Shown here: piece by piece, positions 1,270 through 51,546 of the stretch
Layout: each line of letters starts with the position of its first letter
How positions within the stretch are numbered: the stretch's first letter is position 1
Virus record (IMG/VR): IMGVR_UViG_3300005805_000105
Coordinates: 1 to 57,103 of that record
Direction: 5' to 3' (one strand)
Source: a virus
Taxonomy: Duplodnaviria > Caudoviricetes
DNA length: 57,103 nt
Notes under the pieces: generated by a model
What the model was told of the DNA's origin: nothing
Databases searched by the model: none
The model's input: only the letters and a program-made list of their open reading frames with translations
Program-made: the position numbers and the translations under genes

Positions 1270-1306
1270 AATTATGTCTCCAGAAAGTGTTAAGTTTGAC
1301 ATAATA

Positions 1307-21161: not shown

Positions 21162-23384
21162 CTAACCGCTTGTAATAATAAGACCTGCACCTGCACCGGC
21201 CCAAGTATCCGTTCCGGGATTGTCTGTTGTTGGTGGGGTTGGGGTATCACTCGTATTTGATGCGGAAAAAGATCCTGTCTCGTTATGGTACCAGTTCCAC
21301 GTAGAATACCCGAAGGCTCCCCAAATGATAATATACTCGCCATTCACAAAAGGCTCATATGTTGTTTGAACATAACTGCCCTTCGCATAATACGGCTTTC
21401 CATTATATGTTCCCGCTTGTACATAAACTCCATTAGCGCCAGACTGTTCTCCAGTAAGACCGCTTACTGTGAGCGTATTTTCTGGTGGGGCGGTGGTTGT
21501 TGATCCACCGCAAGTTGTTTGTGTCAAAGTGGGGGCGGGAGAAGCTGCTTCTACTACGTACCATTCAGTAGGATCAGTAGGAGGAGAAGCGTGATTGCCA
21601 GCAGAATAAGCTACTACGCCACCGTAAGTAGGACCACCGGGCTGATATTTTATTACCCACATTTCCGATAAGCCCAACCAGTAGATGTAATAATCTCCAC
21701 GGGAATAAACATCTTTGCCGTCAAATTTTTCGTCTCCTAGGCAATAAGTCCCGTTGAAACTAGAATCTCCCGCTCCGCTGACTGTATATCCTTGGACTCC
21801 GGGAGTGGCAGTTGTTGTTGTTGTTGTTCCACCGCAAGTTGTTTGCGTAACAGACGTAGGTGCAGAACCCAAATCGGTTCCGCAGCAAGAGTAAGAACTC
21901 CATCCTGTTACTGGCAGCTCGCCGCCGTTGTATCCATATCCTCCGTTGTAGTAATATCCGTCCGAAGCAGCCAAAATATTGCCAACAACAGGCCCAATCC
22001 ACGCATAATCGCCGCCATAATAGATGTACAGATTGTTGGTTTGATGCTTATAGATATTTGTACCTTGACCGGATCCGCTAGCACCGTCATTGACCGCATA
22101 AAAACAATATGTGCCGTTGTACGCGCTATTACCGGCACCTGTCACAATGTAACCGGGGGTGCTGGGAGCAGCAGTAGTTGTCGTTGTTGTCGTTGTTGTC
22201 GTGCCAAGGTAACAAATTTCTATTTCAGCTGAAATAAGAGTTCCAGCGTCTGGTATTTGTGAATCGAAGAAGCTGTCAAAATCTTGTATATACAATGACC
22301 ATTGTCCATTTGTTTCTTGTGGAGTTAATCCAACAAATGTCGTAATATTTGGTGTAACATTGCCGGGTTGTCCTCCAACAGATGAATTTAGTAATTGTAC
22401 TGGACATGGTGGAGAAAAGTTAACGCGGTATGAGCCTGTACTATTAATAAATGTCCCAGCTGAGAAGCAGTCCCACACTGTTGTAGAGTCGCTAGATATA
22501 ATTACATTTATATTGTCAGCTATATCAGCACCACTTAATCTTCCTGCGATCACAGAATAAGCAGCATTATTTGGCGATACAAGCACCATGCCCACATCAC
22601 CAGTGTATGGATGATTATATCCATTTAGCTTGAGTGATATTTTGGTAATATTACCAGATATACCAGCAACATTGAAAGTGATCGGATATACACTGGCTGT
22701 GTCATAATCTCTAATAATAATATTAGACTGTTCAGCTGGGATTGTATTGCATATTTCAAATAGTGGACCAGCAGTTGTTGTAGTAGTTGTAGTAGTGGTG
22801 GTAGTGGTTGTTGTTGTGGTAGTAGTGGTAGTTGTGGTAGTAGTTGTAGTGGTCACTGTAATGGGTGTATGAATGGCATAGTTTCCCATTCCAACTACAT
22901 TAATAGCTGCTACCTGAAAAGTATATGTACCAAATGGTAAGTTATTGAGAGAAAAAGTTGTTCCCGTTTGCGTTGTAGTTATCCAATTAACACCATTATG
23001 AGCATATCTAACAGAATACTGGATAACTTCACAGCCGCCATCATTAAGTGGAGGTTCCCACGTAACTTCAATATCGTCCTCGCCATTATAATTGGCGGTA
23101 AAATTTCTAACAAGATTTGGAATATTGCCAAGAACAGTGCTGGCGATATTAGAATATGGTCCGCGACCAGCCCCGTTTACTGCTGCAACTTGAAACTCAT
23201 ATAATTCACAACTAACAAAATTATCTATAGTGAACAATGTAGCAGAAGTTGCATCAACAACTGGATCACTATATATTGTCCATGTTAATTCATTAGCTTT
23301 TTTATACTGAATTATGTAATCAACAATAGGAGATCCGCCATTATCTGATGGCGCGTTCCAGTTAAGTTTAAATACCTTGGCCAT
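21162..23384 (-). CDS. Virion fibre/adhesin-like protein: 2x FN3, poly-Thr, P-domain, 3 repeated modules
   Basis: WNAPSDNGGSPIVDY/YEFQVAAVN FN3; YPITFNVAG..GDVGMVLVSP..NGQWSLYIQD P-domain; GAGxSxxNGTYC repeats. Confidence 0.75.
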   Translation of the reverse strand: MAKVFKLNWNAPSDNGGSPIVDYIIQYKKANELTWTIYSDPVVDATSATLFTIDNFVSCELYEFQVAAVNGAGRGPYSNIASTVLGNIPNLVRNFTANYNGEDDIEVTWEPPLNDGGCEVIQYSVRYAHNGVNWITTTQTGTTFSLNNLPFGTYTFQVAAINVVGMGNYAIHTPITVTTTTTTTTTTTTTTTTTTTTTTTTTTTAGPLFEICNTIPAEQSNIIIRDYDTASVYPITFNVAGISGNITKISLKLNGYNHPYTGDVGMVLVSPNNAAYSVIAGRLSGADIADNINVIISSDSTTVWDCFSAGTFINSTGSYRVNFSPPCPVQLLNSSVGGQPGNVTPNITTFVGLTPQETNGQWSLYIQDFDSFFDSQIPDAGTLISAEIEICYLGTTTTTTTTTTAAPSTPGYIVTGAGNSAYNGTYCFYAVNDGASGSGQGTNIYKHQTNNLYIYYGGDYAWIGPVVGNILAASDGYYYNGGYGYNGGELPVTGWSSYSCCGTDLGSAPTSVTQTTCGGTTTTTTATPGVQGYTVSGAGDSSFNGTYCLGDEKFDGKDVYSRGDYYIYWLGLSEMWVIKYQPGGPTYGGVVAYSAGNHASPPTDPTEWYVVEAASPAPTLTQTTCGGSTTTAPPENTLTVSGLTGEQSGANGVYVQAGTYNGKPYYAKGSYVQTTYEPFVNGEYIIIWGAFGYSTWNWYHNETGSFSASNTSDTPTPPTTDNPGTDTWAGAGAGLIITSG
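22773..22853 (-). repeat. ACN tract encoding 27 consecutive Thr
   Basis: 81 nt of mixed Thr codons; further tracts at 22173-22202 (10), 27768-27803 (12), 30717-30746 (10). Confidence 0.95.
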
Positions 23385-23390
23385 GGCATA

Positions 23391-23585
23391 TTATTTTGGT
23401 TCAATAACTACGCCCACGCATCCAAGGTTTATTAATTTTTCGATTAATGCTTCATCACTAAGAGGATCTAGTTCAGAAGACATATTCTGAAGAACTACTT
23501 GATCTGCTTCTGTGCCTCTTAATAATGATAAAGATACGGTGCGCCCTGTAAGTTCTAATGTTATTGTGTCCATATATTGCTCCAT
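23391..23585 (-). CDS. Small hypothetical protein
   Basis: ORF abuts upstream stop codon. Confidence 0.45.
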   Translation of the reverse strand: MEQYMDTITLELTGRTVSLSLLRGTEADQVVLQNMSSELDPLSDEALIEKLINLGCVGVVIEPK

Positions 23586-23735
23586 TTATTTGTTTTCTGT
23601 TGGTTTATCATTCGTTGTTTCATATATAGTTGATGAATAATTTGGAGCAGACCATATAACTATGGAATTATAGTATATCTTACTTACACTAATATTACCA
23701 AGTTTTATGTTATCTGCACTATTAATTATTGACAT
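23586..23735 (-). CDS. 49-aa fibre-associated protein (not in ORF track)
   Basis: MSIINSADNIKLGNISVSKIYYNSIVIWSAP..., similar to the N-terminus of 26653..27222; fills the gap exactly. Confidence 0.65.
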   Translation of the reverse strand: MSIINSADNIKLGNISVSKIYYNSIVIWSAPNYSSTIYETTNDKPTENK

Positions 23736-23736
23736 A

Positions 23737-26640
23737 TTATCCTACTATAATATATAGAGTATTTGAGTCTGGTGCAGATAATGCATCGTATTCCGCCTGT
23801 GTTAATTTACGAATAGCAGAAACATTACCAGCATTTGTAACCTTATTATTTAGTTCTGACTGTACAGCTGTGCTAACTGGTTTATTAGCATCGCTCGTAT
23901 TGTCCACATCGCTTAAACCAACCATGCTCTTGGTGATACCAGAAACAGTACCGGTGAAAGTTGGGTTGGCAACATTGGCCTTGAGGTCAACGTTAGACTT
24001 CAAGCTCTTGAACGCCTGCTGAACAGTAGATGCTCCAGCGATACCACTATCAATCTGGTTGTGATAGATGTTCTTACTGTCGTGCAAAACTTCAATCGCG
24101 TGCTGCACGTTATAAGAAATCGATGAGTTACCAGCCACAGTGAGGGTAGCGGCGGCATTGGTAGCCGTTGCATTCGCACTGATCGTTAAGGTCGAGCCAC
24201 TAATGGCCGTTATCGTTGTGCCAGCCGGAATTCCCGTACCTGTGATCGTGTATCCTACTTGGAAGTTGGCCGCGAGAACGCTTCCATTGTTTACAGTGAC
24301 TTGGTTACTGCCGCTTGTGATACTGCCAGCAAAACCAAGATTGAAAGTCAGTGGGAAGCTTAACTGCTCACACTGCCATGTGATTGTGCCGTCCACAACC
24401 GTGCCGCCTATTGTGGTCGGCCATGTGGGCTGCGTTGTGCCGCTACGGCCAATGCCCGTGGCGGTCACATTGCGATACTGATAGCCGTTGCCGGGAAGTA
24501 GGATGCGATTACGCACATACTGCGCATTAGCGGCCCAACCAATAGCCGGATATCTAAATGTGACAGCCGCCGAACGTGCAGTAAGAAACGCACTTCCAAG
24601 ACCGGGCTGGGTATTCGTATTCCAACCGGGATGCGTATGAATAGCACCTTCGTTGGCCGACAATCCAAATGGGCCGGGCTGAATAAACCCGCTTGCACTT
24701 GCGTTGCCGAAGAATGTTCCCTTGATCCACTTTGCGTTGGCCGCAGTTACCGCAACCGAAACATCCGGCCCCGCGTTCTCGTAGGACACAGTGTTGGCGG
24801 TCGGAAAGTCAACGACCTTGGCGCCAGACGTGGCGGTGTTGAACGACGTGTCTTCAGTCACACCATTGATGAGAACATACTGCTCACGCCAGTAGCCATC
24901 GGAGAGAATGTTGCGCCCTTGCCCGTGATTCAGCGACAGCGTAACCGTGGCAACATTGTTTGTTCTAGTAAACGATGTGGCCTTGATTTCGTTGTACGCC
25001 GGAAGTTGCACACCATCCAAACTGACAAGTGTTTGTATGACAGTAGGGAAAACAGAGGCCCAACTTTGGAAAATCGCATTGTTAAGTGTCGCCATCGTTA
25101 CATTACCAATAATATTTCCAAATCCGTTGCCGCCGGCACTGTGGTTACTGTTGCATCCGTTGAAAGTGATGACGTGAGAACCGGTGGATTTAAGCGTGTC
25201 AAAAGTAGAATTCTGCCACGCATACAACTGCATCGTGCTGCTCGTCGGGCTTGTCGCTTCGATCACGCCACGAACACCACAATTCGTCAAATGCACCTGA
25301 TTAAACCAGCCTTGATCCGCAGTATGAACAGTCAGATTACCAAGAATCCCGACCATGCTGTGCTGGCCGTTATTGAACATTGGCCGATGGTTCGAGCCGA
25401 TCATGGCGAAAACAAAGTTGCCAAGTTCACCAGAATCGAATGTCAGACTAGCCGAAGCATTCGTTGCGGTGGCATTGTTGTTCAGCGTAATGGTGCTGTC
25501 GCTAATGGCCGTGATGACCGTATTGAGTGGCATACCCGTGCCGGTCATAACCGTGCCAACCTTGAGTCGGCTGTAATTAACGTGCGATGTGCTAACAGTA
25601 ATAGTGTTGCTGCCGGTCGTAGTCGCGGAGGTAACGTTGTTCGTATTGCCGCCGGAAGTCGCGGGAACCACGTTCGCCGGACGACTCCACAAATAGTTGC
25701 CCTTGAGCGTGACGCCGCCGGTCAGATCAAACACAACGACGGGGCGAAACGGAATATTCAACGTGCCGCCGGATTCTTCATCGTAAAAGCCCGGAGCGAT
25801 ACGGAAGCAATAAAATCGCTTGGTCGTGTCGTTCATGTCCGCGAGCGACGCCGCACTAGAAACGGACGCCAAAGCCGACCGCATGGTTTTGTACGGGCGA
25901 TACTGGCTGCCGTCTTCGGTGTAGGTATCGGTGCGGCTGTTATCAACGTAAATGTTCCTAGAGCCGGGCTGCGAAAGCCAACTATTGAGTTCCGCAAGCG
26001 TGTGCGTGTGGCCTACGTTTGACTTAAGATCAAGAGCAGTTTGCTGCGCTGTGCTAACTGGCTTATTAGCATCACTGGTGTTATCAACATTGTCAAGCCC
26101 AACGTCATTTTTAGACAAAATTACATTGCCAGTTTGATTAGCTACGCTTTGCACTGGAGCGGCTGCACTGGCTCTTTCGTCTGTATAATATTTATTAAGT
26201 GTACCTTCAGCAACATCATCCGTGGTACCGGGAGAAGATGTAATATTAATATATGTGCTACCGCTCCAACGATATGATTTATTATCATCGAGTGTGACAT
26301 ATATCTTACCAGTTTCACCTGACACTGGTAGTCCAGAAACACTTGGATATTCTAAAACATCATCTACATAACTTGGCAACTGAGTAGATGGAACCTTACC
26401 ACTATTATCTAAGTCTGCCTTGCCACTCAATAAAGTTCCTAGGCCAGACGCTGTAACAATATTACTAGAAAGTCTATTATCATCTAAAGTACCCTCTGTA
26501 AGCTGACTAGCATCTGTCACTAGATCAGCAATGCTTCTAAGAGTTACTTTATTTGTCACTCCAGATGGATTACTAACTGGTACTACGCCCAAATCAATGG
26601 CTGGCGAAGATGATAATTCTGATATCTTAATATCTGGCAT
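23737..26640 (-). CDS. Tail-fibre-like protein
   Basis: IKISEL N-terminus, GKVPSTQLPSYVDDV, two VDNTSDANKPVSTA repeats, QAEYDAL..DSNTLYII C-terminus. Confidence 0.8.
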   Translation of the reverse strand: MPDIKISELSSSPAIDLGVVPVSNPSGVTNKVTLRSIADLVTDASQLTEGTLDDNRLSSNIVTASGLGTLLSGKADLDNSGKVPSTQLPSYVDDVLEYPSVSGLPVSGETGKIYVTLDDNKSYRWSGSTYINITSSPGTTDDVAEGTLNKYYTDERASAAAPVQSVANQTGNVILSKNDVGLDNVDNTSDANKPVSTAQQTALDLKSNVGHTHTLAELNSWLSQPGSRNIYVDNSRTDTYTEDGSQYRPYKTMRSALASVSSAASLADMNDTTKRFYCFRIAPGFYDEESGGTLNIPFRPVVVFDLTGGVTLKGNYLWSRPANVVPATSGGNTNNVTSATTTGSNTITVSTSHVNYSRLKVGTVMTGTGMPLNTVITAISDSTITLNNNATATNASASLTFDSGELGNFVFAMIGSNHRPMFNNGQHSMVGILGNLTVHTADQGWFNQVHLTNCGVRGVIEATSPTSSTMQLYAWQNSTFDTLKSTGSHVITFNGCNSNHSAGGNGFGNIIGNVTMATLNNAIFQSWASVFPTVIQTLVSLDGVQLPAYNEIKATSFTRTNNVATVTLSLNHGQGRNILSDGYWREQYVLINGVTEDTSFNTATSGAKVVDFPTANTVSYENAGPDVSVAVTAANAKWIKGTFFGNASASGFIQPGPFGLSANEGAIHTHPGWNTNTQPGLGSAFLTARSAAVTFRYPAIGWAANAQYVRNRILLPGNGYQYRNVTATGIGRSGTTQPTWPTTIGGTVVDGTITWQCEQLSFPLTFNLGFAGSITSGSNQVTVNNGSVLAANFQVGYTITGTGIPAGTTITAISGSTLTISANATATNAAATLTVAGNSSISYNVQHAIEVLHDSKNIYHNQIDSGIAGASTVQQAFKSLKSNVDLKANVANPTFTGTVSGITKSMVGLSDVDNTSDANKPVSTAVQSELNNKVTNAGNVSAIRKLTQAEYDALSAPDSNTLYIIVG
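23867..26076. repeat. 29-nt direct repeats (2 mismatches) at 23867-23895 and 26048-26076 flanking a GC-rich segment
   Basis: gctgtgctaactgg(t/c)ttattagcatc(g/a)ct. Confidence 0.85.
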
Positions 26641-26652
26641 GATTAATATTCC

Positions 26653-27222
26653 TTATAAAATAATGTTGTTATTGGTTTCTGTGGTAAGTTTAAATGAATT
26701 TTCTGTGTTTAAATAATCAGCAAAATTTCTGTATAGAATATAGAACTCGCTGAAACTACTAGTTAAACCGCAAAGGGTTTTATTAATAGGATCTGGAGCA
26801 TTTTCTCCAGTTAATACTGTAATGTCGTTAGTTTCTCCATTACTATTATAGTGAAAAATTCTTGCTGTATCAAATTGTTCTTCTGTTAAGTGGCTTAAGT
26901 TAAAACACAATAATATATCACCAGCAAAGTCTGCTGTAGTTTCAATATTATATATAGCAGCATTATTTGTAATAGAAAAATCTCCCGGCAATAATGGAGA
27001 TTCTTCTGCTATTGGTCTGTATGTGATAGTTGTATTTCCAGCAGCGACCGTTTCTTCAAATGTTAGAGTTATTTCTGTTTGTCCTAAAACGGTTGTGGTT
27101 TGTGACCCTTCACCAGATGGTGTAGAAAGTAGTCTTCTTCCATACACAAGATTTGTGCCAAGAAAGACTTGTTCTACTAAATTATTACCAATATAAATTT
27201 TGTCTAATAAGTAAGATATCAT
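26653..27222 (-). CDS. Fibre-associated beta-rich protein
   Basis: KIYIGNNLVEQVFLG N-terminus; YNIETTA..LCF..IFHY..LCGLTSSFSEF. Confidence 0.6.
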   Translation of the reverse strand: MISYLLDKIYIGNNLVEQVFLGTNLVYGRRLLSTPSGEGSQTTTVLGQTEITLTFEETVAAGNTTITYRPIAEESPLLPGDFSITNNAAIYNIETTADFAGDILLCFNLSHLTEEQFDTARIFHYNSNGETNDITVLTGENAPDPINKTLCGLTSSFSEFYILYRNFADYLNTENSFKLTTETNNNIIL

Positions 27223-27713
27223 GATTCTTTAATAAGGTAGAGTGTGTTTGGGTCGTGAGAAACCAATTGATTGTATGCTATTTGAGATATTTGAACAATA
27301 TTATTTATCCCACTAGAACCAGCTATATTGTTTGGATTACTTGATATATAATTAGTATCATTGTTGAGTGAGCTAATATCGGCTCCACTAGTAATATAAT
27401 TTTGTAAGTCTGTTATTTGTGATTCTGTGAGTCTTAATGCTCCGCTGTGTTGTACTACAGAGCTTTGAGTAATGTTTGCGTCTGGAACATTTGCCCATAT
27501 TACTGATGCGGCAAGGTTATTTATTTCAGGACCGCCACCGCTACCACCGCCAGTGATGCCAGTAAGTTGTACCCAAGTACTAGTACCGTCGCCAATTTTG
27601 AATACTTTACTATCTATAGCAAAAGCTGGTTCACCAGAAGCTAAGATTGTATTTTCAGATATAAAATTTGCTTCAGTATCTCTGCGTAGTTTTATTGTAG
27701 GATATTTTCGCAT
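27219..27713 (-). CDS. Fibre protein with Mtd_N/hyaluronidase-type N-terminal anchor
   Basis: IKLRRDT..NTILASGEPAF..KIGDG; DPNTLYLI C-terminus. Confidence 0.7.
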   Translation of the reverse strand: MRKYPTIKLRRDTEANFISENTILASGEPAFAIDSKVFKIGDGTSTWVQLTGITGGGSGGGPEINNLAASVIWANVPDANITQSSVVQHSGALRLTESQITDLQNYITSGADISSLNNDTNYISSNPNNIAGSSGINNIVQISQIAYNQLVSHDPNTLYLIKES

Positions 27714-27755
27714 AGTAGTTCCTAGTTTAATATGACTACAAGATAATACACAATT

Positions 27756-30700
27756 TTATGGTGAAATTGTAGTAGTAGTGGTAGTTGTGGTGGTGGTTGT
27801 CGTACATATTCCACTTCCGAATGATCTTTCTGGCAAGGGGAAGCTAGTACCACTATATCTAGCTCGATTGCTTATTCTAACTTCATCTATTTGACCTATA
27901 AAGCCCTGTGTTCCGATTCTAATACCATCAGTAATAGAAGACATACAACCAATATCAATGCCGTCATGCGTATAAGCAAATGTTGGTGTGCTAAATAGGC
28001 TCTTTCTTGATCCGTCAATATATAATGCGTTTGTATTGCCGCTACGTACCCAAGCCACATGGTGCCACTTGTTACTAAGTACAGAATTAGTAGCATTAAA
28101 CATAGTTACTTTTTCTTCTACAAAGTTATTTCCTTGATTGAGTGTATTTTTGGTATATTCTACAAATAAGCTACCATCATCCACGTACATTTTCCACGTT
28201 GCATTGTCAGTAACTGGTGCAGATGAAAAATTACCAGCCATAAGCACTTGTGGATTGCCCGTAAACTGATTAACTCTAAAGAAACATTCGACAGTTGAAT
28301 TTACTCCAGATGGCAAGTTCATTGCTGTTCCAGAACCAAAGAACAATCCAATACTATTATTTCCATCTAAAAATAAGCTTGCTCCACCAAATTTATATGT
28401 TGGCGTCCAAGTGTATATAGAACCAACTGGCTCCGGTGTCCATGAGTTTTTAGAAATATCTTCAAAGTCTGAGCCATATAGTTCACCATCTAAGTGTGTC
28501 AATAAAATTGTGTCGCAATAATTATCATCTGTGGCTTCAATGGGCATAATATTAGCTGTTGGGGTGCTATATGCACCAATGCCAACATAATTTCTAGCAG
28601 CTACTCTAAATTGATAATTAATATTGTTCTCTAATCCAGTAATAATGCATGATTTAGTTGTGGGATGAATTTCTACAACATCTGTCCACTCTGATTCTCC
28701 ACTCTTGAGATATTGGATATAGTAATCAAGCACGCCCTGTTCTTCTGACTGTGCTAAATCCCAAGATAGAAAAATGTCTCTACTTCCGGCTAGGAGTGAT
28801 GTATTTGCATTTTTTGGCACTACATTTGTTGGCGCATTAGGTAAGTAAGAGAATACAGTCATTAAAGAGTGATTTCCGCCAGTATGTGCAGACATCCATC
28901 TAATTCTACTATTAATTTTTGTTGGCTCATTTCTGTCAATATTATCACCAAGTCCGAGTTGGCCATGATTATTATGACCAAAAGCCCAAGCTTCCTTTTT
29001 AGAGTTAATTATTATAGAATGATTACCACCAGCGTCCATGTCAATCCAATCGCTAGATGGTAATTTAGTTGGTAATATTCTTTGTAGTTGATCGCTGGTT
29101 CCCAATTGTCCATAAGTATTTTTACCAAACGACCATATTTCGTTTCTATTGTTTCTTAGTAATGAAAAGTCAATACCGGCAGCAATATCTACCCAAACAC
29201 TTGATGGTTTATCATAATATAATAGATTTTCGCCACCCATATATCCATTATTATACGAATAAATACTAACCTTTTCAAAGTCTCCAGACACGTTTACTGT
29301 AACTGTGCCATAATAAAAATTATATGTACCGTTAGCTGTTGTATTTGTTACAGACTTAGAACCTCTAAGATCAGAGCCAGAATATGAAATTAAATCTTGT
29401 TTACCATCATTTAGTACTGCTATGGCAAAACCGCTAGGAACTCCGCTAATAACATATTGACCAGAACTAAGTAAATATCTATCTTGCTCATCGTATGTTT
29501 TACCAACAGAGTAATTGAGAATATATTTATTATCTGTCACATATAATGATCCAGATCTAGCAAGATTAGACCATTCATAACAATCTAGTAACTTCCAATC
29601 TGAGACAATCTTGGTTGGATTTAGTCTATTATTTGTATCGCCAAGTCCTAGTTGTCCATAATTATTATTACCAAAGCTCCACACATCTCCAGAGCTATCA
29701 AGTGCTAATGAATGATAATTGCCAGCAGCCACCTTTACCCAGTTTGTTTTAGTTCCAACTCTTTGTGGCTCGTTTCTATTTGTCACATCGCCAGTACCAA
29801 GTTGTCCAAAAGCATTGTGACCAAAGCTATATAATTCTCCACTCTTAATTGCTAATGAGTGATAGTTGCCAGCTGCAATTTCTTGCCAATCTGCATTTGG
29901 GTCTTGATAATGAAATAGATTTTCTGCTCCAGCATAACCGTCTGCTATAGAATATAAACTAACTTTATCATAATTTCCGCTAACATTAATTGTGACATTA
30001 CCATATACGAATCCGTAAGTGCCATCGGCTTCTGTGCCTGTAACAACTGAAGAAGCGGCTAAAAACTCGCCAGAATAACTAATTATATTTGTTTTACCTT
30101 GGTTTAATATAGCCATTGCGTAATCTTGTGGAACCCCACTAATAACATATGTTCCACTTGGCATAATAAACCTATGTGGGCAATTGTATCCATTAGAGGC
30201 TGATGCGAAGGTATATAGAGCATTTTGTACATCAACTTGTTCTATATTACTAAATGGAAGATAATGTACTTTAGAACCAACGAGAACTGGCTGTTCTCTA
30301 TATTCTCCGTCGCCAACGCCTAGACAACCATGAGCATTAGAACCAAACGCATAAAGTTTATCATTTGAATCAATTGCTAGCGTATGATAAGCTCCAGCAG
30401 AAAGTTTCTTCCACTTTGGAGTATTGCTATGTAAACATGTGTCTATATAAACTCCGCTAACTTTTTGCGGAACAGATCTATTAGTTCCAGCACCAATATT
30501 ATTTAGTCCTAATTGGCCATAATAATTATAACCAAATGTATACAGGTCATCGTAGTAGTCTATGCCAACAGTGTGATAATGTCCAACAGAAAATGTTTTC
30601 CATTTTTTATTGCCAGTTATTAATACTGGCTGATTTCTTTGCTGCTCATCACCAGTTCCAAGTTGACCAAATTCATTGTATCCAAACGTATAAACTGAAT

Positions 30701-31193
30701 TAGTAACCGGAGGCAACGTAGTAGTGGTGGTGGTAGTAGTTGTAGTACCTAAAACCAAATATGCCACTATGTATAGTTTAACATTTAAAATTGCAGAAGA
30801 ACTTATTGAAGATGAGTTTCTGATTTTGATAGACACTTCGTTAACATTACTAACAAAAGCGCCAGCAAAAACTAATTCGTCTGATAATCCCTGTTCAGAT
30901 GCAATAAAGACTGCATATTTATCGTCTGTGTTGACGCCGCTTAGTGGGGCGACTATTGTATGGGTTTGATTAGAAGATATACTTGGAATATTTACGCTAA
31001 CAACAGCGTGTTTAATATCATTTGTAGAAATGAATCTATTTAAATCTTTCCAAGCATGAATTCCATCACCAATTTTGAAAATGGTGTGGTCTGTAGCAAA
31101 CGCTGGCTCACCGGAAGCCAAAACTGGGTTAGCAGCGTCAAGATCTGCAAGTTCTCCACGCCTAATATGTATATTTTTATAACTAGCAGCCAC
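27756..31193 (-). CDS. Large virion protein: Mtd_N-type anchor, RCC1 repeats, FN3, LamG
   Basis: NPVLASGEPAF..KIGDG; many FGxNxxGQLG and AGxxHSL repeats; YQFRVAARN; WHHVAWVRSG..LYIDG..IDEVRIS. Confidence 0.8.
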   Translation of the reverse strand: MAASYKNIHIRRGELADLDAANPVLASGEPAFATDHTIFKIGDGIHAWKDLNRFISTNDIKHAVVSVNIPSISSNQTHTIVAPLSGVNTDDKYAVFIASEQGLSDELVFAGAFVSNVNEVSIKIRNSSSISSSAILNVKLYIVAYLVLGTTTTTTTTTTLPPVTNSVYTFGYNEFGQLGTGDEQQRNQPVLITGNKKWKTFSVGHYHTVGIDYYDDLYTFGYNYYGQLGLNNIGAGTNRSVPQKVSGVYIDTCLHSNTPKWKKLSAGAYHTLAIDSNDKLYAFGSNAHGCLGVGDGEYREQPVLVGSKVHYLPFSNIEQVDVQNALYTFASASNGYNCPHRFIMPSGTYVISGVPQDYAMAILNQGKTNIISYSGEFLAASSVVTGTEADGTYGFVYGNVTINVSGNYDKVSLYSIADGYAGAENLFHYQDPNADWQEIAAGNYHSLAIKSGELYSFGHNAFGQLGTGDVTNRNEPQRVGTKTNWVKVAAGNYHSLALDSSGDVWSFGNNNYGQLGLGDTNNRLNPTKIVSDWKLLDCYEWSNLARSGSLYVTDNKYILNYSVGKTYDEQDRYLLSSGQYVISGVPSGFAIAVLNDGKQDLISYSGSDLRGSKSVTNTTANGTYNFYYGTVTVNVSGDFEKVSIYSYNNGYMGGENLLYYDKPSSVWVDIAAGIDFSLLRNNRNEIWSFGKNTYGQLGTSDQLQRILPTKLPSSDWIDMDAGGNHSIIINSKKEAWAFGHNNHGQLGLGDNIDRNEPTKINSRIRWMSAHTGGNHSLMTVFSYLPNAPTNVVPKNANTSLLAGSRDIFLSWDLAQSEEQGVLDYYIQYLKSGESEWTDVVEIHPTTKSCIITGLENNINYQFRVAARNYVGIGAYSTPTANIMPIEATDDNYCDTILLTHLDGELYGSDFEDISKNSWTPEPVGSIYTWTPTYKFGGASLFLDGNNSIGLFFGSGTAMNLPSGVNSTVECFFRVNQFTGNPQVLMAGNFSSAPVTDNATWKMYVDDGSLFVEYTKNTLNQGNNFVEEKVTMFNATNSVLSNKWHHVAWVRSGNTNALYIDGSRKSLFSTPTFAYTHDGIDIGCMSSITDGIRIGTQGFIGQIDEVRISNRARYSGTSFPLPERSFGSGICTTTTTTTTTTTTISP

Positions 31194-32120
31194 TTAGAAT
31201 ACCTCGTTAATAGTCCAAGCGACTTGTCTCGCTGGAAAGCCATCCACATCGCTAAATACCCAAGCGCCATTTTGTGATAACATTTCTCCAGCATCTCGCT
31301 CCCTAATCCAAAAACTTCCATCCGGCTGATTGTGTCGCTTTGGTCCAGCATTCCATACGCCCCAAGAATTTTGTACTAAGAATAATGTTTCTTTATATAC
31401 TTCATGAGTATCATCCATGCCAACCCAAGCCATAGCGTGCGCCCAAGATCCACTTCTTTTAGCTATGCCATTTTGATCTCTCTTAGAACTAAAACCAGCC
31501 ATACTACAAACAGAAATTGAATATCCATTTGCAATAGCATCTCTAGCCTGCTCAATTGTATTTACTAAACTAATTGTTTTTACTTGGTGCTTCTTCGCCT
31601 CTTGTACTAATTCGTCTGGAACTCCGCGACTTCCCCACCTACCGCCAATAGCGCTATATTTACTTAAATCATATTCGCCATATTGTTGTCTAAGTAAAAT
31701 GCCGCCAGTTTGATGTACAAATCTAGCAGCGACAGAGCATGACATGCCTTCACCGCCATGACCTCTCGCTCCATAAATTGCTTCAGTAGCGCTTCTAGTA
31801 ATAAAATCTTCTTTTTGTCCACCTATAATTTCATGGCTTCGTGTTGCATCTACTGCATTACGTGTTGCATGGCTGACACAATCGCCCTGTACCTGTCTTT
31901 CATGTGCGCCGAAAGTGGGGTCAAATTTTACCACACTATTATATAGTAGTGCTAACTTGCCCTTACCAGAGCCATATAAATTATGGGCGGCAGCGCCGAA
32001 AAGGGGATGAGGAAGCTCACCAAGAAGCTTGTCCACATCCTCTGGATCGCACCATGAGCCTACAAAACCATCTTTATACGCTTTTAATAAATCCCTTGGT
32101 GTATCAAACATATTTATCAC
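31194..32120 (-). CDS. Papain-like (C1) cysteine peptidase
   Basis: RQVQGDCVSHA (Gln/Cys), WAHAM (His), QNSWG (Asn). Confidence 0.85.
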   Translation of the reverse strand: MINMFDTPRDLLKAYKDGFVGSWCDPEDVDKLLGELPHPLFGAAAHNLYGSGKGKLALLYNSVVKFDPTFGAHERQVQGDCVSHATRNAVDATRSHEIIGGQKEDFITRSATEAIYGARGHGGEGMSCSVAARFVHQTGGILLRQQYGEYDLSKYSAIGGRWGSRGVPDELVQEAKKHQVKTISLVNTIEQARDAIANGYSISVCSMAGFSSKRDQNGIAKRSGSWAHAMAWVGMDDTHEVYKETLFLVQNSWGVWNAGPKRHNQPDGSFWIRERDAGEMLSQNGAWVFSDVDGFPARQVAWTINEVF

Positions 32121-32329
32121 TATTCCTTAGTTACATTGCCCTTGGCCCACTTAACTACTGAATCAATGACCACTGTTACCACTGGAACCATAAGAACGCC
32201 AGTTGCACCAAGGTCAAGATTGGCTAAATTTTCACCTACATAAGTAAGAACTGCGGCTAGGCCAACAAGCACCGCATTTTTTACTAATGAAACGACATCT
32301 TTCTGATCTAAAGCATATTTGGCTGACAT
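32120..32329 (-). CDS. Small 2-TM protein, holin-like
   Basis: 69 aa, two hydrophobic helices, charged C-terminus. Confidence 0.55.
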   Translation of the reverse strand: MSAKYALDQKDVVSLVKNAVLVGLAAVLTYVGENLANLDLGATGVLMVPVVTVVIDSVVKWAKGNVTKE

Positions 32330-32331
32330 AA

Positions 32332-32934
32332 TTATACCTCATTTGTTGCAGAAGACACACTAACTAAAAAACCTCCCTGTTCCGATTCCGTAATACGATA
32401 CGGATATCCTATCATTTTAATTATCATACCGTCTGTTGTTTTGGTTTCTCTGCTGAACTTTCTATTCATTTGTAAACAAGATCTAAATTCTTCTAATAAG
32501 TCTTCTCTATCGTCCTCGTCTATAAATGATAACCAATCATAACCTTCGATAAGTCCATTAGAGTGTTCTTTAAAAAATCTACAGAAATTAGCATTGTTCC
32601 AGATTAATCTACCATTATGATCTGTTTCGAATAAAGCTGCACTGCTATAGTGCATAGAAGCTTTTGTTCTTTGTTCACCTATGCGTTGTCTAGTTTCGAT
32701 TCTGTTGCATATTTGTCTTAAATCTAATATAGCATCTTTAAGACTATTGCCACCATTGGTCATAAGCTCTTTTCTAATAGCATCTATAGAGCTTTTGAAG
32801 TCATCTTGATGCTGTAGAAGTTTTACTAGTGGCTTAATAACCTTTACCCATGCTAAACTGAGCAAAGTACCTGCACCACCTAATAAGCTTACAATAATAG
32901 TTACATACTCAGTATTTGGAACGTCTAGCACCAT
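32332..32934 (-). CDS. Single-TM, coiled-coil and PAS-domain protein
   Basis: N-terminal TM; NGGNSLKDA; LFETDHNGRLIWNN..F..GYDWLSFIDEDDRE PAS signature. Confidence 0.75.
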   Translation of the reverse strand: MVLDVPNTEYVTIIVSLLGGAGTLLSLAWVKVIKPLVKLLQHQDDFKSSIDAIRKELMTNGGNSLKDAILDLRQICNRIETRQRIGEQRTKASMHYSSAALFETDHNGRLIWNNANFCRFFKEHSNGLIEGYDWLSFIDEDDREDLLEEFRSCLQMNRKFSRETKTTDGMIIKMIGYPYRITESEQGGFLVSVSSATNEV

Positions 32935-32958: not shown

Positions 32959-32992
32959 AGATTAACCGCCCCCTTTCGGGGGCGATTTATCT
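32959..32992 (-). terminator. Strong GAAA-capped stem-loop after 33008..33643
   Basis: AGATAAATCGCCCCC-GAAA-GGGGGCGGTTAATCT; no adjacent U tract, so it may be a stability/processing hairpin. Confidence 0.6.
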
Positions 32993-33007: not shown

Positions 33008-33643
33008 TTAAGCTTCGTAACTATCTCTTGCCTTATAATCTGAGCTTGTTGGCTTTGCTAGGCCACCAAAGTGATAAGTAAGTTCACCGGGAACCGCTCT
33101 GGTTGGAGTAGCAGCATCATCTGTGGCGGCTGTTGTGCCGTCCACTTGTACGAAATTGCTAGCATTGCCAGCGCCAGTACCCTTTGTTCTACCGGGAACC
33201 ATGTCTGTGGATGGTCTGGCAAGAACATTGAACTTGGCATCAGAGTATGAACCAATCTTACGAGTACCAACGACAGAGTGTACCTTATTAACTGTTCTTA
33301 CTCCATATTCTGAAGCTGGCGAAGAAAGAACTGTGCTATTAGCATTATTAACCTTGCCAGAAGTATCACCAGCGCCTCTTAAAAGGAAATTTCTTTCACC
33401 TTCTTGAGCGTTGGGATAATAGGCTAGGCCAGCACCGCCACTCTTTGCCACTGAAACGCCAGCATAATCATTGCTAGTGCCTACTTTTGCTACAACTTGT
33501 GAACCATATGTGCCATCGACATGTAGTTCATTGATAGCAATTACATTTGTAATTGGGTTATCAGAACCGACATTACCAGCACCAATAACTGTGCCGCCAT
33601 TGTTTACAGTAGATCCAGAACCTTTTGCAGTAGTGGTTGCCAT
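33008..33643 (-). CDS. Gly/Ser/Thr-rich protein, probably virion structural
   Basis: Composition, strong RBS, own promoter motif and 3' hairpin. Confidence 0.55.
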   Translation of the reverse strand: MATTTAKGSGSTVNNGGTVIGAGNVGSDNPITNVIAINELHVDGTYGSQVVAKVGTSNDYAGVSVAKSGGAGLAYYPNAQEGERNFLLRGAGDTSGKVNNANSTVLSSPASEYGVRTVNKVHSVVGTRKIGSYSDAKFNVLARPSTDMVPGRTKGTGAGNASNFVQVDGTTAATDDAATPTRAVPGELTYHFGGLAKPTSSDYKARDSYEA

Positions 33644-46426: not shown

Positions 46427-46455
46427 ATTGTATCCACAAGAATCGCTTTTGTCAA
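46427..46455 (-). promoter_or_regulatory. sigma70 promoter for rfbB-thyX
   Basis: TTGACA-17-TACAAT. Confidence 0.7.
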
Positions 46456-47219
46456 TCTTTTTCTAGAGCTTCCAATTTTTCAACCATAAATTCTATCCAC
46501 TCTTTATGGATACTGATTCTAGTATGTAGAGACTCTTCATTATAATTAGCATCAAGCTTACCGTCATTAGTCATAATGCAAGAATTAATACCGGCTAGCT
46601 TGTTATCTATAAACAAGCCGCCGCCACTGTCTCCACTACAAATCATGAACTCTAATGCTGTTTTAGGTGGCTTATTTACTGAGCATAATAACATGCCATT
46701 TGCTAAGCCATCTATTTTGTTTGATCCTGCTCTTTTGTTATTATCGTGCTTTGAGATACCTTTATCAAATGTACCAGTAAATCCAAAACCAGCAATACTA
46801 CATGTCTTGCCTACCTCATCATCTTTATCATATAACGATGGATAGAAATCTAGCTTGGCTTCTTTTTCTAAATAACATATAGCTATATCATATGGCCCCA
46901 TATCTTCATGTTTGTATTTTTCTAGCATAATAGATGCTAAAATATGAATCTTTTCTCCATTGAGCGTAATATAACAATCTTTTGCGGATTTAACAACATG
47001 TGCTGCCGTGAGAGCAATTCGTGGTTTAATTAAAACAGCAGAAGCTCTATATCTTGCCTTTGGTTGATCTTCAACTATACCATTAATTTCAACTACGCAT
47101 TCGTGCTGCTTACCGTATTCAATATATTTTTGATCACTTACTCTTGGATCAATAGTTCCAGCCTGTAAAATGCCTAATGAAGCTATAAACAGTATTAATG
47201 AGAGAAGAAAGTGCCTCAT
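46452..47219 (-). CDS. Secreted trypsin-like (S1) serine protease
   Basis: Signal peptide; LTAAHV, DIAI, SGDSGGGL. Confidence 0.88.
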   Translation of the reverse strand: MRHFLLSLILFIASLGILQAGTIDPRVSDQKYIEYGKQHECVVEINGIVEDQPKARYRASAVLIKPRIALTAAHVVKSAKDCYITLNGEKIHILASIMLEKYKHEDMGPYDIAICYLEKEAKLDFYPSLYDKDDEVGKTCSIAGFGFTGTFDKGISKHDNNKRAGSNKIDGLANGMLLCSVNKPPKTALEFMICSGDSGGGLFIDNKLAGINSCIMTNDGKLDANYNEESLHTRISIHKEWIEFMVEKLEALEKD

Positions 47220-50830: not shown

Positions 50831-50861
50831 TGGAGGTGGGCTGTTATAAATGGAGGTGGGC
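50831..50861. repeat. 11-nt direct repeat of the tmRNA 3' end
   Basis: tggaggtgggc at 50831-50841 and 50851-50861. Confidence 0.9.
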
Positions 50862-51203
50862 AGAGTCGAACTGCCGTCTTGCGATACTTCTAATTACATC
50901 TTCTACAAGTTTAGATTATTCATAATAATTCGGGCATGACTAAAGAATAAACAACATTCGCCAACCCTAGTGACACATCTTAGCCCGTTAACCGTCACCA
51001 CTAACGGGAGCCGAAGGATTTTACGACAATCTTTTGAACGCTACCTTCATCGCTTTCTAAGATTGTTGCTACCTTTTATTAAGCAGCAAGAGCTAACTGA
51101 TTTGCGCCAGTTAAAGCGTTTAATCGACTTTTAAAGTGGCCGGTCGATCAACCACTACTTGCTAATATAATCTTCCATATCCAATCGATACCTTTACACC
51201 CCC
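50851..51203 (-). ncRNA. ssrA: tmRNA, 353 nt; tag (A)GANQLALAA
   Basis: Acceptor GGGGGTG/CACCTCC-A with G3.U70; T-arm GGCAG-TTCGACT-CTGCC; TAACT then tag ORF 51108-51079 ending GCT GCT TAA; CCA not encoded. Confidence 0.93.
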
Positions 51204-51204
51204 G

Positions 51205-51546
51205 TTATTTTAAGAACTTATTCAAACCTCTCGCCCCGCCACCATATCCTTCTTTTCGTCCAGTTTGCTTGCCGTTCTTGAATATAATAAACGTCGGCAA
51301 TGTCTTTATATTATAGCCTTCTACCAAGTCTTTGTCAAGGTCATGGTCTAAAAAGACTACATCATAGCCTTTAATTGTCTCTGATAGCTCTTTATCATTA
51401 TCAATATCATGCTTAGCGACTTGACAGTATTTGCACCAAGGTGCAGTAAAAAATAGCAATGTTGGCTTACTATTGTCAAAAGCAAACGCACTAGCCGCCG
51501 ATATTAACCAAGATATAATTAAGACATTTAGAATGCTTTTAAACAT
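51205..51546 (-). CDS. Exported thioredoxin
   Basis: Signal peptide ending AFA; FTAPWCKYC; LPTF. Confidence 0.85.
   Translation of the reverse strand: MFKSILNVLIISWLISAASAFAFDNSKPTLLFFTAPWCKYCQVAKHDIDNDKELSETIKGYDVVFLDHDLDKDLVEGYNIKTLPTFIIFKNGKQTGRKEGYGGGARGLNKFLK

Follow-up and report, generated by a model that had tools for sequence, protein, structure and literature searches.

Canonical holin-endolysin cassettes include S and R of phage lambda and, in phage 21, the pinholin S21 with its SAR endolysin, and to our knowledge the wall is breached by a peptidoglycan hydrolase in all characterized bacterial double-stranded DNA phages. The SAR endolysins of the P1 Lyz type are activated by thiol-disulfide exchange, an intramolecular isomerization within the lysozyme. 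The T protein of phage T4 is itself the holin and carries a periplasmic globular domain. PeiW and PeiP of methanogen viruses are pseudomurein endoisopeptidases that act on a non-murein wall, and baculovirus V-CATH is a C1A proenzyme that breaks down host structures at the end of infection. We know of C1A enzymes as enzymes that cut proteins, not as peptidoglycan hydrolases. A disulfide-stabilized protein envelope layer has been described for Planctomycetes-type hosts. [quoted passage not shown]

Here, we analyzed the window, a 57,103-nucleotide stretch of viral DNA in which a sequence-only reading had proposed a sensor-gated lysis cassette composed of a membrane-anchored PAS (TM-PAS) protein, a holin-like protein, and a papain-like peptidase. 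Our analysis favors, tentatively and at somewhat less than an even chance, a holin-type lysis cassette whose lysin would be a zymogen-like cysteine protease acting on envelope proteins with the aid of an exported thioredoxin. Full-text literature searches, exclusive of supplements, turned up no paper on such a cassette, on a PAS-bearing antiholin, or on a C1A phage lysin.

Results

The source phage and its host

The window comes from a large water phage that is as yet uncultured. Its DnaE and TerL share 24 to 37% identity with their nearest cultured relatives, and assignment to the T4-like phages was rejected on the replication set of DnaE, DnaB, DnaG, and a RecA-like protein. A complete related genome, G001, encodes DUF1501 and DUF1559 proteins, and DUF1501 also occurs in two related loci (L006 and L015); these genes point tentatively to hosts among the Planctomycetes-Verrucomicrobia. 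Matches to the window's tmRNA were found in 3/301 Planctomycetota and 2/301 Bacteroidota genomes, the best of them (73% over 136 nt) on a GC-rich Planctomycetaceae contig. The N terminus of the window's subtilase, LENRQLLS, may resemble those of planctomycete secreted proteins.

Organization of the locus

The cassette consists of three co-oriented, tightly packed minus-strand ORFs that encode, in the order of transcription, the TM-PAS protein, a 69-residue membrane protein, and a C1A peptidase (Table 1). That the three genes abut, as first read from the sequence, was confirmed by the ORF list and the junctions, the first of which reads TAA-TT-ATG, and internal ribosome-binding sites lie within the cassette. 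The peptidase frame is open as far as a GTG at 32120 (32120..31194, 308 aa); because an AAGGAA box lies 11 nt 5' of the ATG at 32111, this ATG is most likely the start codon, and the resulting length is that of most peptidase homologues among the 120 matches listed.

Upstream, the gene for the 211-residue protein is a constant neighbor of TM-PAS, with a homologue at the same position in 21 loci, and its product has no match in Pfam, PHROG, or NCBIfam. The hairpin between these two genes may be a transcript boundary or an RNA-stabilizing element; for a terminator, the minus-strand U-run that follows it is weak.

Table 1. Features of the cassette and associated elements (positions in the window)
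Feature	Position	Strand	Basis
TM-PAS protein, 200 aa	32332..32934	-	ORF, PAS profiles, AF2 model
69-aa two-TM membrane protein, holin candidate	32120..32329	-	ORF, topology prediction
C1A papain-like cysteine peptidase, 305 aa	31194..32111	-	profile, fold, start codon and RBS
GC-rich hairpin, 7 GC pairs, loop of 4	32967..32984	.	consensus scan and sequence
211-aa Gly/Thr/Ala-rich protein	33008..33643	-	ORF
Exported thioredoxin, 113 aa, signal peptide, WCKYC motif	51205..51546	-	Pfam Thioredoxin, 46.3 bits

The TM-PAS protein

A short acidic N-terminal tail and a single hydrophobic segment (residues 11-29) begin the TM-PAS protein, which carries the motif ELMTNGGNSLKDA; Glu56, Asn60, Gly62, Ser64, and Asp67 are invariant in 15 homologues. 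Its PAS_9 match in Pfam (E 4e-4, 21.1 bits) lies under the cut-off of 27, and TIGR00229 scores 22.9 bits, exactly its cut-off; five homologues (L024, L089, L112, L115, and L117) exceed the Pfam PAS cut-offs. The AF2 model (pLDDT 77.6) has one helix at residues 8-58 and another at 64-95, separated by the NGGNS loop and followed by a PAS fold. This fold comprises a five-stranded antiparallel sheet (100-104, 110-113, 160-166, 171-180, and 186-195) with flanking helices, which together with the profile match identifies a PAS domain. The Atlas structural rows for the protein likewise reach the bar for PAS, and its clusters there are viral-only and consist of PAS proteins of 183-229 aa. Neither a kinase nor any further output domain was detected. 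Profiles, model, and hydrophobicity agree with the initial description of this gene as encoding one TM segment, a coiled coil with NGGNSLKDA, and a PAS domain free of any kinase or output domain.

Because the N-terminal tail is acidic and the stretch after the TM segment is basic, a pattern found in 15/15 homologues, we predict a cytoplasmic PAS domain (N-out, C-in). The sequence-only reading had drawn an analogy to T4 holin T, described there as one TM segment plus a GAF-like domain that receives the lysis-inhibition signal. This analogy fails on topology, with the PAS domain predicted cytoplasmic in 15/15 homologues; the term GAF does not occur in the one T4 holin paper searched, and Pfam and PHROGs report no T, RI, or RIII family for any of the three proteins. 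The initial suggestion that NGGxSLxD motifs occur in phage lysis regions is matched by a distant TM-PAS member within a cluster of 2TM, TM-PAS, TM, and M15-endolysin genes. Other relatives adjoin Mom or gp23, away from any lysin. A complex prediction for the TM-PAS and 69-residue proteins, run without controls, scored 0.00, which speaks neither for nor against their association.

The 69-residue membrane protein

Hydrophobic segments span residues 12-30 (KD 1.85) and 41-59 (KD 1.97) of the 69-residue protein, and the sequence further contains an acidic loop and a basic C-terminal tail, with a predicted N-in/C-in orientation. Topology prediction on 22 homologues bears out the two TM segments; the loop is devoid of Lys and Arg in 19/22 of them, and the tails carry Lys or Arg. 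In sequence prediction, the protein therefore has the size, topology, and charged tail of a class II or pinholin-like protein. The nearest named Atlas clusters in a feature search are "Holin family protein" (0.94) and r1t holin (0.87). The earlier label holin-like is upheld on size, topology, and these clusters but not by family membership: no curated holin family in Pfam, PHROG, or NCBIfam contains the protein, and 24 aligned proteins (22 of its family and two unrelated small proteins) yielded no family match at E ≤ 1. Searching 50,697 phage records by tblastn at E ≤ 10 produced no match to it, and the homologues among the 120 matches listed are all unnamed or "hypothetical".

The C1A peptidase

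The peptidase scores 25.0 bits (E 2.3e-5) with PF00112 (Peptidase_C1), whose cut-off is 20.7. Gln73, Cys78 (GDCVSH), His225 (WAHAM), Asn248, and Trp250 (QNSWG) are invariant in 23 sequences, and the AF2 model (pLDDT 87.7) adopts the two-lobed papain fold. A profile match above cut-off, the catalytic residues, and this fold establish a C1A papain-like enzyme with an intact catalytic set, in keeping with the intact C1 peptidase first described; proteolytic activity is predicted from the sequence and model. Foldseek returned 255 PDB matches at E ≤ 1e-3, with xylellain at E 3e-10, and all PDB matches listed are C1 enzymes, whereas a sequence search of the PDB gave nothing relevant. In VIA comparisons, the model aligned with xylellain (3ois) at Z 21.6 and an rmsd of 2.8 over 230 residues, with procathepsin B at Z 18.0-19.5 (4i04, the cathepsin B1 zymogen, 19.5; 1mir, 18.5; 1pbh, 18.0), with procathepsin X at Z 18.2, and with Cwp84, an S-layer-processing C1A protease, at Z 18.3. 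Its BFVD neighbors include a viral cathepsin and phage C1-like proteins that bear the names "Peptidoglycan binding-like" and "N acetylmuramidase", which are names only. JGI annotates one member of its cluster as a "C1A family cysteine protease".

The window's enzyme has no signal peptide and begins with a stretch of ≈47 residues at the location of a zymogen prosegment. VIA alignments begin at model residues 29-50 for mature enzymes (≈48-50 for papain-type plant enzymes) and at residues 3-7 for zymogens, and model residues 3-47 superpose on the cleft-crossing C-terminal part of procathepsin and propapain prosegments. Pro36 and Gly49 are invariant, and the family has a motif of its own, NQPDGSFW. 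Pfam reports no I29 inhibitor domain.

The peptidase is the best-conserved protein of the block, with 68-79% identity in 10 close loci as compared with 32-70% for its neighbors, although in L005 it ties with the 69-residue protein. Inteins are frequent in the family and are placed at the catalytic cysteine. This combination is met more often in core enzymes than in endolysins and counts against a lysis function. An alternative, which we consider somewhat unlikely, is that the peptidase serves this phage lineage as a core enzyme of the cytoplasm, for example, in the processing of phage proteins or in the degradation of host proteins during takeover, with the TM-PAS and 69-residue proteins unrelated to it and engaged in signaling or superinfection exclusion. 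Such frequent inteins at a catalytic cysteine are found in essential enzymes, and a signal is absent from 145 of the best 150 family representatives as well as from the window's copy. Mucilaginibacter and a Balneolaceae MAG carry chromosomal copies that likewise lack a signal and have non-phage surroundings. The linkage data, the search for other lysins, and the export signals bear on the same alternative.

Linkage across relatives

Among 38 TM-PAS-anchored IMG/VR loci, the 69-residue gene comes next in 36, and in 31 it lies directly upstream of the peptidase, our proposed lytic enzyme. Of 46 peptidase-anchored loci, 5 of which are cut off upstream, 18 have all three genes adjacent and 27 have the 69-residue gene. 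The synteny check thus identified the trio as a conserved linked unit on dozens of contigs, and for this reason it is not a chance neighborhood. Three metagenomic searches returned 1808, at least 1054 (for the 69-residue protein), and 2040 homologues or representatives; among the 50,697 deposited phages, no close relative of the region, the peptidase, the TM-PAS protein, or the 69-residue protein was found.

Additional membrane genes accompany the trio in a distant clade, where a ≈130-residue 2-TM protein and a ≈150-residue TM- or lipobox-anchored protein are encoded between the 69-residue gene and the peptidase. Neither has a tblastn homologue in the window, G001, or G002, or a PHROG or NCBIfam family, and the sole Pfam match for either, that of the ≈150-residue protein of L019, is sub-threshold (Ribosomal_L27_C, E 0.0039, 17.1 bits against 25). 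The clustering of several small membrane proteins with the peptidase in independent lineages speaks against a cytoplasmic core enzyme.

In favor of a core enzyme, the coupling of the genes is lost in G001, L086, and L093, and TM-PAS is found elsewhere beside Mom and gp23. The complete G001 genome has the peptidase, with TM-PAS and the 69-residue gene undetected by tblastn; there, the peptidase is followed by genes for TM proteins and a 58-residue protein with a weak holin match (phrog_4712, E 5e-4). In L086 and L093, ribonucleotide reductase follows TM-PAS and the 69-residue gene. In records in which the peptidase is absent from its slot, none was found elsewhere either, these records being only 9-31% complete.

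Search for a conventional lysin

The initial reading recognized no muramidase or amidase in the window, and searches with Pfam (9 + 72 ORFs) and PHROGs (27 ORFs) agree with it. With Pfam, no canonical lysin was found in 81 window ORFs, 98 of the 119 ORFs of G002, or 143 of the 179 ORFs of G001, nor did PHROGs find one in 82 G001 ORFs. Six-frame searches of G000-G004 with PF00959, PF01510, PF13539, PF01464, PF01520, PF01551, and PF00877, covering up to five records of which two (G001 and G003) are complete, gave nothing above cut-off; an eighth family, PF00182, says nothing, as the control genomes were silent. In a tail-tip ORF of G002, NlpC/P60 reached 13.8 bits, which is sub-threshold. The cassette proteins yielded no muramidase, transglycosylase, amidase, or known peptidoglycan-endopeptidase domain, and no spanin pair was recognizable in the window. 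The genome-wide search for an endolysin that had been called for thus uncovered no canonical one, either in the window or in the two complete genomes of relatives, although silence in profile searches is not proof of absence. That complete genomes yield no other lysin candidate weighs against the view of the peptidase as a cytoplasmic core enzyme.

The possibility raised at the outset that the peptidase is a virion maturation enzyme was not upheld for the head: a head-maturation role was rejected on a ClpP-type protease gene that adjoins the terminase gene in the relative G002.

Export signals, thioredoxin, and exchange of the protease

In 33/87 loci, the gene immediately 3' of the peptidase is a thioredoxin-domain ORF, confirmed by Pfam in seven loci. 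In the six loci inspected, as in the window's copy, this thioredoxin has an N-terminal signal or anchor. The window's thioredoxin gene is located 19 kb from the peptidase gene and is adjacent to it in many relatives; we infer that the two proteins are partners. Tat or Sec signals occur in 5 of 23 aligned peptidase homologues, and the copies encoded by Limnocylindrus and Pirellulales MAGs are anchored at the N terminus. Only 5 of the best 150 family representatives have an N-terminal hydrophobic segment, so export of the peptidase is the exception. In L102, the peptidase slot after the 69-residue gene is taken by an S8 subtilase, with a signal protein and then a thioredoxin that is exported; in L089 and L090, the products encoded after TM-PAS are a C92-like protein (E 1e-3) and a trypsin-thioredoxin fusion with export features. 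The recurrent adjacency of an exported thioredoxin, the Tat-, Sec-, or anchor-bearing homologues, and the replacement of the peptidase by subtilase and exported thioredoxin all argue against a cytoplasmic core enzyme.

These same features could be explained by an exported protease-thioredoxin system that acts on surface proteins of the infected cell, for receptor destruction, superinfection exclusion, or reduced loss of progeny on debris, with the membrane proteins serving in export or regulation. The window's genome encodes a signal-bearing trypsin-like protease and a subtilase along with the exported thioredoxin, signal-bearing peptidase homologues exist, and the protease types are interchangeable. 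We nonetheless regard this explanation as quite improbable: the window's peptidase, having no export signal, would still need a membrane lesion that is lethal by itself, no exclusion system of such composition was found in the literature searched, and the genome would still be left without a lysin. A virion- or tail-fiber-associated enzyme that matures the downstream fiber proteins or digests a protein surface layer at entry would fit the Cwp84 structural neighbor (Z 18.3) and the Mtd_N, RCC1, fn3, and LamG fiber-like genes directly 3' of the peptidase in the window's clade, but is very improbable, as the gene is elsewhere followed by thioredoxin or membrane genes, homologues that bear Tat and Sec signals could not be packaged into virions that assemble in the cytoplasm, and bacterial chromosomal homologues exist.

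Discussion

The lysis-cassette interpretation of this locus stands on the conserved linkage, the holin-like traits of the 69-residue protein, the intact peptidase, the additional membrane genes, the export signals, the swapping of proteases in one slot, and the finding of no canonical lysin; what has fallen away is the topological analogy to T4 holin T. [quoted passage not shown] On the opposite side are the signal-less peptidase and its signal-less chromosomal copies, the incomplete linkage, including the uncoupled genes of G001, the lack of a curated holin match, the TM-PAS relatives beside Mom and gp23, and the sub-threshold NlpC/P60 signal in G002.

In the lysis cassette that we propose, the three genes would form the core of a late-expressed unit, translated from one tightly packed transcript, with a protease in place of a peptidoglycan hydrolase. 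The 69-residue protein would build up in the inner membrane, N-in and C-in, and finally permeabilize it. TM-PAS, with its one-helix anchor and its cytoplasmic coiled coil and PAS domain, would modulate the timing of this event on a cytoplasmic cue. The signal-less peptidase would be made with its N-terminal stretch at the site of a cathepsin prosegment, as modeled, and would then reach the periplasm and cleave envelope proteins, for example, a protein wall layer or membrane-to-wall tethers. The Sec-exported thioredoxin would keep the catalytic cysteine reduced or open disulfide-linked substrates. In sister lineages, peptidase copies with a Tat or Sec signal or an anchor, or a subtilase, would take the same job. 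A more specific version strikes us as unlikely: lysis free of any peptidoglycan hydrolase throughout this very abundant lineage, in which a PAS-timed holin-like protein releases a zymogen-like papain protease that, with thioredoxin, dismantles a disulfide-stabilized protein envelope layer, and in which protease types (C1A, S8, and trypsin-like) are swapped in the manner of endolysin domains.

If the lysis reading is true, a papain-type protease with an exported thioredoxin would constitute a new enzymatic route to lysis in a lineage whose metagenomic relatives number in the thousands, would suggest hosts with protein-dominated envelopes, and would be a source of new lytic enzymes. The TM-PAS family, with its single helix, NGGxSxKD loop, and PAS domain lacking an output, could provide the first example of a phage in which a signal from the cytoplasm is read at the membrane and sets the time of a late event. 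Two observations stand even without a role in lysis, namely the peptidase-thioredoxin gene pair and the inteins that have very frequently invaded a phage protease at its catalytic cysteine.

Compared with the lambda S/R and S21 systems, the locus shares a small two-TM, basic-tailed protein encoded just upstream of a soluble signal-less hydrolase among tightly packed late genes, and the sister-lineage peptidases resemble SAR and secreted endolysins in bearing their own signal or anchor. It differs from lambda and phage 21 in that the hydrolase is a C1A protease, the small protein belongs to no holin family, and no spanin pair is recognizable. Like T4 T, TM-PAS spans the membrane once, carries a globular domain, is encoded with the putative lysis machinery, and could set the timing of lysis; unlike T, its domain is predicted to be cytoplasmic, and the holin candidate is the separate 69-residue protein.

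The peptidase has the C1A fold and catalytic residues of xylellain and the short-prosegment procathepsins X and B and, in the model, a comparable N-terminal stretch over the active-site cleft. It is set apart from them by 14-18% identity, the lack of I29, the NQPDGSFW motif, and its phage origin, and autoinhibition and activation are here hypothetical. Lysin A N5 and PeiW/PeiP are likewise papain-clan cysteine peptidases, there used by viruses to open the host wall, but they belong to other families (C39-like and C71) and are fused to wall-binding domains, whereas the window's enzyme is a stand-alone C1A peptidase with no binding domain. V-CATH, unlike the phage trio, comes from an insect virus, works together with a chitinase on tissue whose cells have already died, and has no membrane cassette. 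As in P1 Lyz, the periplasmic thiol redox state would control a lytic enzyme with a catalytic cysteine; the difference is that a separate exported thioredoxin gene accompanies the protease here, and we infer an interplay between their products.

Arrangement and conservation of the three genes

The 57,103-bp IMG/VR record (judged 37% complete) carries nearly all of its genes on the minus strand, and the features discussed here are collected in the table. The sequence-only reading had described three abutting genes, the first encoding one transmembrane (TM) segment and a PAS domain and the third an intact C1 peptidase, and this description holds throughout. The TM-PAS gene ends 2 bases before a gene for a 69-aa membrane protein, which is followed directly by the peptidase gene. 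An AAGGAA box lies inside the 3′ end of the 69-aa gene, 11 nt before an ATG at 32111. By sequence, this ATG is most likely the peptidase start, giving 305 aa, the length of most homologues among the 120 matches listed.

Features of the window and of related IMG/VR loci (L numbers)
Feature	Position	Strand	Remarks
DnaE-type polymerase	577-2923	-	PHP + Pol III alpha
Fibre-like gene run	21162-31193	-	after peptidase
C1 peptidase, full-length ORF	32120..31194	-	308 aa
69-aa membrane protein	32329..32120	-	ORF
TM-PAS protein	32934..32332	-	ORF, 200 aa
GC-rich hairpin	32967-32984		between upstream 211-aa gene and trio
Trypsin-like protease	46452-47219	-	signal peptide
S8 subtilase	47570-48937	-	
tmRNA gene	50848-51203	-	Rfam RF00023, 110 bits; tag peptide GANQLALAA
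Thioredoxin	51205-51546		clear signal peptide, WCKYC motif
CxCxG(T/N)K thioredoxins	L024:6879-7619, L026:6876-7538, L029:7154-7723, L013:6920-7444		
DUF1501, DUF1559 and N-terminal-methylation-motif genes	G001 L061:19632-19949, L062:981-2258, L062:2676-3656; L006, L015 ~10.8-12.2 kb		in relatives

Across 46 IMG/VR loci anchored on the peptidase, five of them cut off upstream, the recurring order is glycosyltransferase, two unknown genes, small sigma factor, 211-aa gene, TM-PAS, 69-aa gene and peptidase. The complete trio occurs in 18 of these loci and the 69-aa gene plus peptidase in 27. An independent set anchored on TM-PAS comprises 48 loci, seven on contigs already in the peptidase set. Here the 69-aa gene comes next in 36 of the 38 closer loci and the peptidase is found in 31, while both are absent from the 10 distant loci. 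The pairing of TM-PAS with the 69-aa gene is tight, and linkage of the trio recurs among related phages. In 10 close loci, the peptidase is the best-conserved gene of the block (68-79% identity vs 32-70% for seven neighbors), the single tie being with the 69-aa gene in L005.

The block also varies. In a distant clade, two further membrane genes separate the 69-aa gene from the peptidase, encoding a ~130-aa 2-TM protein and a ~150-aa protein with a TM segment or lipobox; the latter proteins have the motif FDPILGRVQSSYGW in common. Two loci (L086, L093) continue from TM-PAS and the 69-aa gene into ribonucleotide reductase. The complete related genome G001 has the peptidase without TM-PAS or the 69-aa gene; next to it, downstream, come four small TM proteins, of which one is a weak holin PHROG match (E 5e-4). 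In L102 the order is TM-PAS, 69-aa gene, S8 subtilase, signal protein and exported thioredoxin, and in L089 and L090 TM-PAS precedes a C92-like protein (a weak match) and a trypsin-thioredoxin fusion that is exported. The peptidase slot can take other proteases.

The C1 peptidase

The third protein is a member of family C1A. It scores over the Pfam Peptidase_C1 cut-off, Gln73, Cys78, His225, Asn248 and Trp250 do not vary among 23 sequences, and its AF2 model (pLDDT 87.7) has a papain fold. The best PDB match is xylellain (Foldseek E 3e-10; VIA Z 21.6, rmsd 2.8 over 230 residues); procathepsins, propapain and Cwp84 rank next. Three of four tested C1A features are found; the fourth, a possible zymogen form, was examined by superposition on the model. 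Alignment of mature enzymes begins at model residues 29-50 (~48-50 for papain-type plant enzymes) and that of zymogens at residue 3-7, so the N-terminal stretch occupies the place of a prosegment; it may inhibit the enzyme.

This is a large family, with 1808 homologues in 90% clusters and 2040 representatives at 50% identity. The window copy has no signal peptide. Tat or Sec signals are present on five of the 23 aligned homologues, copies from Limnocylindrus and Pirellulales MAGs have an N-terminal anchor, and signal- or anchor-type segments occur in only 5 of the 150 best representatives. Mucilaginibacter and Balneolaceae MAG copies are chromosomal and signal-less, in ordinary gene contexts. 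Inteins (Intein_splicing + LAGLIDADG) heavily invade the family, with none in the window copy; one insertion site immediately precedes the catalytic cysteine, and another is near profile positions 235-259. Intein-bearing ORFs in L014, L029, L032, L044 and L047 reach 650-676 aa. Among the 150 best 50%-identity representatives (P0267-P0416), 62 exceed 360 aa and eight exceed 800 aa with three matched stretches.

The two membrane proteins

TM-PAS has a single hydrophobic segment (residues 11-29). In its AF2 model (pLDDT 77.6) a long helix (8-58) breaks off at NGGNS, and a second helix (64-95) and a PAS fold come after it. The window protein scores 21.1 bits against Pfam PAS_9, under the cut-off of 27, whereas its TIGR00229 score equals the cut-off of that model; its relatives exceed Pfam PAS cut-offs. 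Within the motif ELTTNGGNSLKDA, E56, N60, G62, S64 and D67 are invariant in 15 homologues. In all 15, acidic residues outnumber basic ones in the N-tail, and the 15 residues past the TM segment are mostly basic. By this charge pattern, the PAS domain should lie on the cytoplasmic side. The Atlas groups TM-PAS with PAS proteins of 183-229 aa that form seven viral-only clusters, one of them with 1142 members. The architecture (one TM, NGGxSxKD loop, PAS, no output domain) is spread widely across other types of phage.

The proposed analogy to T4 holin T fails on topology: the globular domain of T is periplasmic, whereas the PAS domain is predicted to be cytoplasmic. The sequence-only reading placed NGGxSLxD motifs in small membrane proteins of phage lysis regions, and one distant TM-PAS, seen once (L111/L112, 4693-6947), fits this, lying inside a 2TM/TM-PAS/TM/M15-endolysin cluster; others lie just before a Mom-family gene (three times, L113-L115) or near gp23, the T4-type major capsid gene (once, L117). 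The sensor idea is the weakest link of the lysis reading: the PAS domain is predicted to be cytoplasmic, and family members are also found where no lysin is near.

The 69-aa protein has two hydrophobic segments, as first read, separated by an acidic loop and followed by a basic tail; the loop lacks Lys and Arg in 19 of 22 homologues. A curated holin assignment did not follow, as no Pfam, PHROG or NCBIfam model matched, and no match was found among deposited phages. The nearest named Atlas clusters, "Holin family protein" (0.94) and r1t holin (0.87), offer a lead only.

Search for a canonical lysin

The window contains no canonical lysin by Pfam (81 ORFs) or PHROGs (27 ORFs). Neither does the related record G002 (135 kb, 85% complete) by Pfam on 98 of 119 ORFs of at least 75 aa, the other 21 being replication and nucleotide genes colinear with the window, nor G001 (158.5 kb, terminal repeats) by Pfam on 143 of 179 ORFs (at least 105 aa). 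In the lysis category, PHROGs on 82 G001 ORFs without a Pfam match returned rIIA and rIIB and nothing else. Six-frame profiles for phage lysozyme, Amidase_2, Amidase_3, M15_4, SLT, M23 and NlpC/P60 found none over cut-off in the window or in G001-G004 (G003 is complete at 172 kb); a GH19 search, whose control was also silent, is non-informative. The first impression that no muramidase or amidase is recognisable in the window is borne out by these searches, which found none in the related records either. The sole lysin trace is an NlpC/P60 signal of 13.8 bits in a G002 tail-tip ORF. A head-maturation role for the peptidase was rejected, as a ClpP-type protease beside the terminase in G002 takes that role.

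Genomic context and host clues

In 33 of 87 loci with the peptidase (counted with our own HMM, loci not de-replicated), the next ORF downstream of it encodes a thioredoxin domain, which Pfam confirms in L022, L024, L026, L029, L040, L047 and L102. On inspection, all of these except L040 have an N-terminal signal or anchor; the 93-aa thioredoxins of L033 and L040 have none. In the anchored downstream thioredoxins, the linker that leads into the domain has a shared CxCxG(T/N)K motif. The G001 174-aa TM protein after the peptidase keeps this motif, with no thioredoxin domain detected. In the window's own clade, fibre-like genes rather than thioredoxin follow the peptidase. Encoded in this run are Mtd_N heads, a protein of 1145 aa that combines RCC1 repeats, fn3, LamG and poly-Thr linkers, and a collagen-like protein of 967 aa, the last within a GC-rich island (52% GC at 24-26 kb vs ~36% elsewhere). 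Three protease classes (C1, trypsin-like, S8 subtilase) are encoded in the fragment.

The DnaE-type polymerase, apparently divided between neighboring ORFs in the window and G002 and carrying a Hint module in G001 (L060:2873-5557), is accompanied by DnaB, a DnaG-like primase, a RecA-like protein, rIIA and rIIB. The nearest cultured relatives show 24-37% identity. The tmRNA gene, borne by the phage, adjoins the exported thioredoxin gene on its upstream side. In the 5′ part of the tmRNA, 136 nt share 73% identity with the tmRNA on a GC-rich contig of a Planctomycetaceae MAG; setting it against 301 Planctomycetota and 301 Bacteroidota genomes did not discriminate between hosts.

The DUF1501, DUF1559 and N-terminal-methylation-motif families, typical of Planctomycetes and Verrucomicrobia, are a possible host clue. 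Such PVC-typical families in relatives, together with three of ten genome matches falling in Planctomycetota MAGs, hint at hosts with protein-rich walls. Walls of this kind were once proposed for Planctomycetes, which do possess peptidoglycan, according to the abstract of PMC4432640.

Interpretation and comparison with known systems

The most economical explanation, held tentatively and at somewhat less than an even chance, is a lysis cassette with a protease in the endolysin's place. The protease would work outside the cytoplasm after the membrane is breached. Its membrane-protein company, exported thioredoxin partner, occasional export signals and protease-type swapping fit an extracytoplasmic enzyme, and with no murein hydrolase found, the lysin job is left vacant. 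The main rival, a cytoplasmic core enzyme, draws on the missing signal, the exceptional conservation and the inteins; we consider it rather less likely than the lysis reading. Surface remodeling is more doubtful than a core enzyme, and a virion or fibre role is the least probable of all.

In full-text searches of the literature (main articles), we found no description of a TM-PAS/69-aa/peptidase cassette. The trio falls outside murein-hydrolyzing endolysins, curated holin families and the T4 T/RI pair. Several BFVD structural neighbors of the peptidase are phage C1-like proteins that carry, as names only, the UniProt labels "Peptidoglycan binding-like" or "N acetylmuramidase." Methanogen viruses open host walls with Pei enzymes, which are papain-clan peptidases. 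[quoted passage not shown] Judged from its genes, the trio would resemble a holin-endolysin cassette in the way it works as a system.
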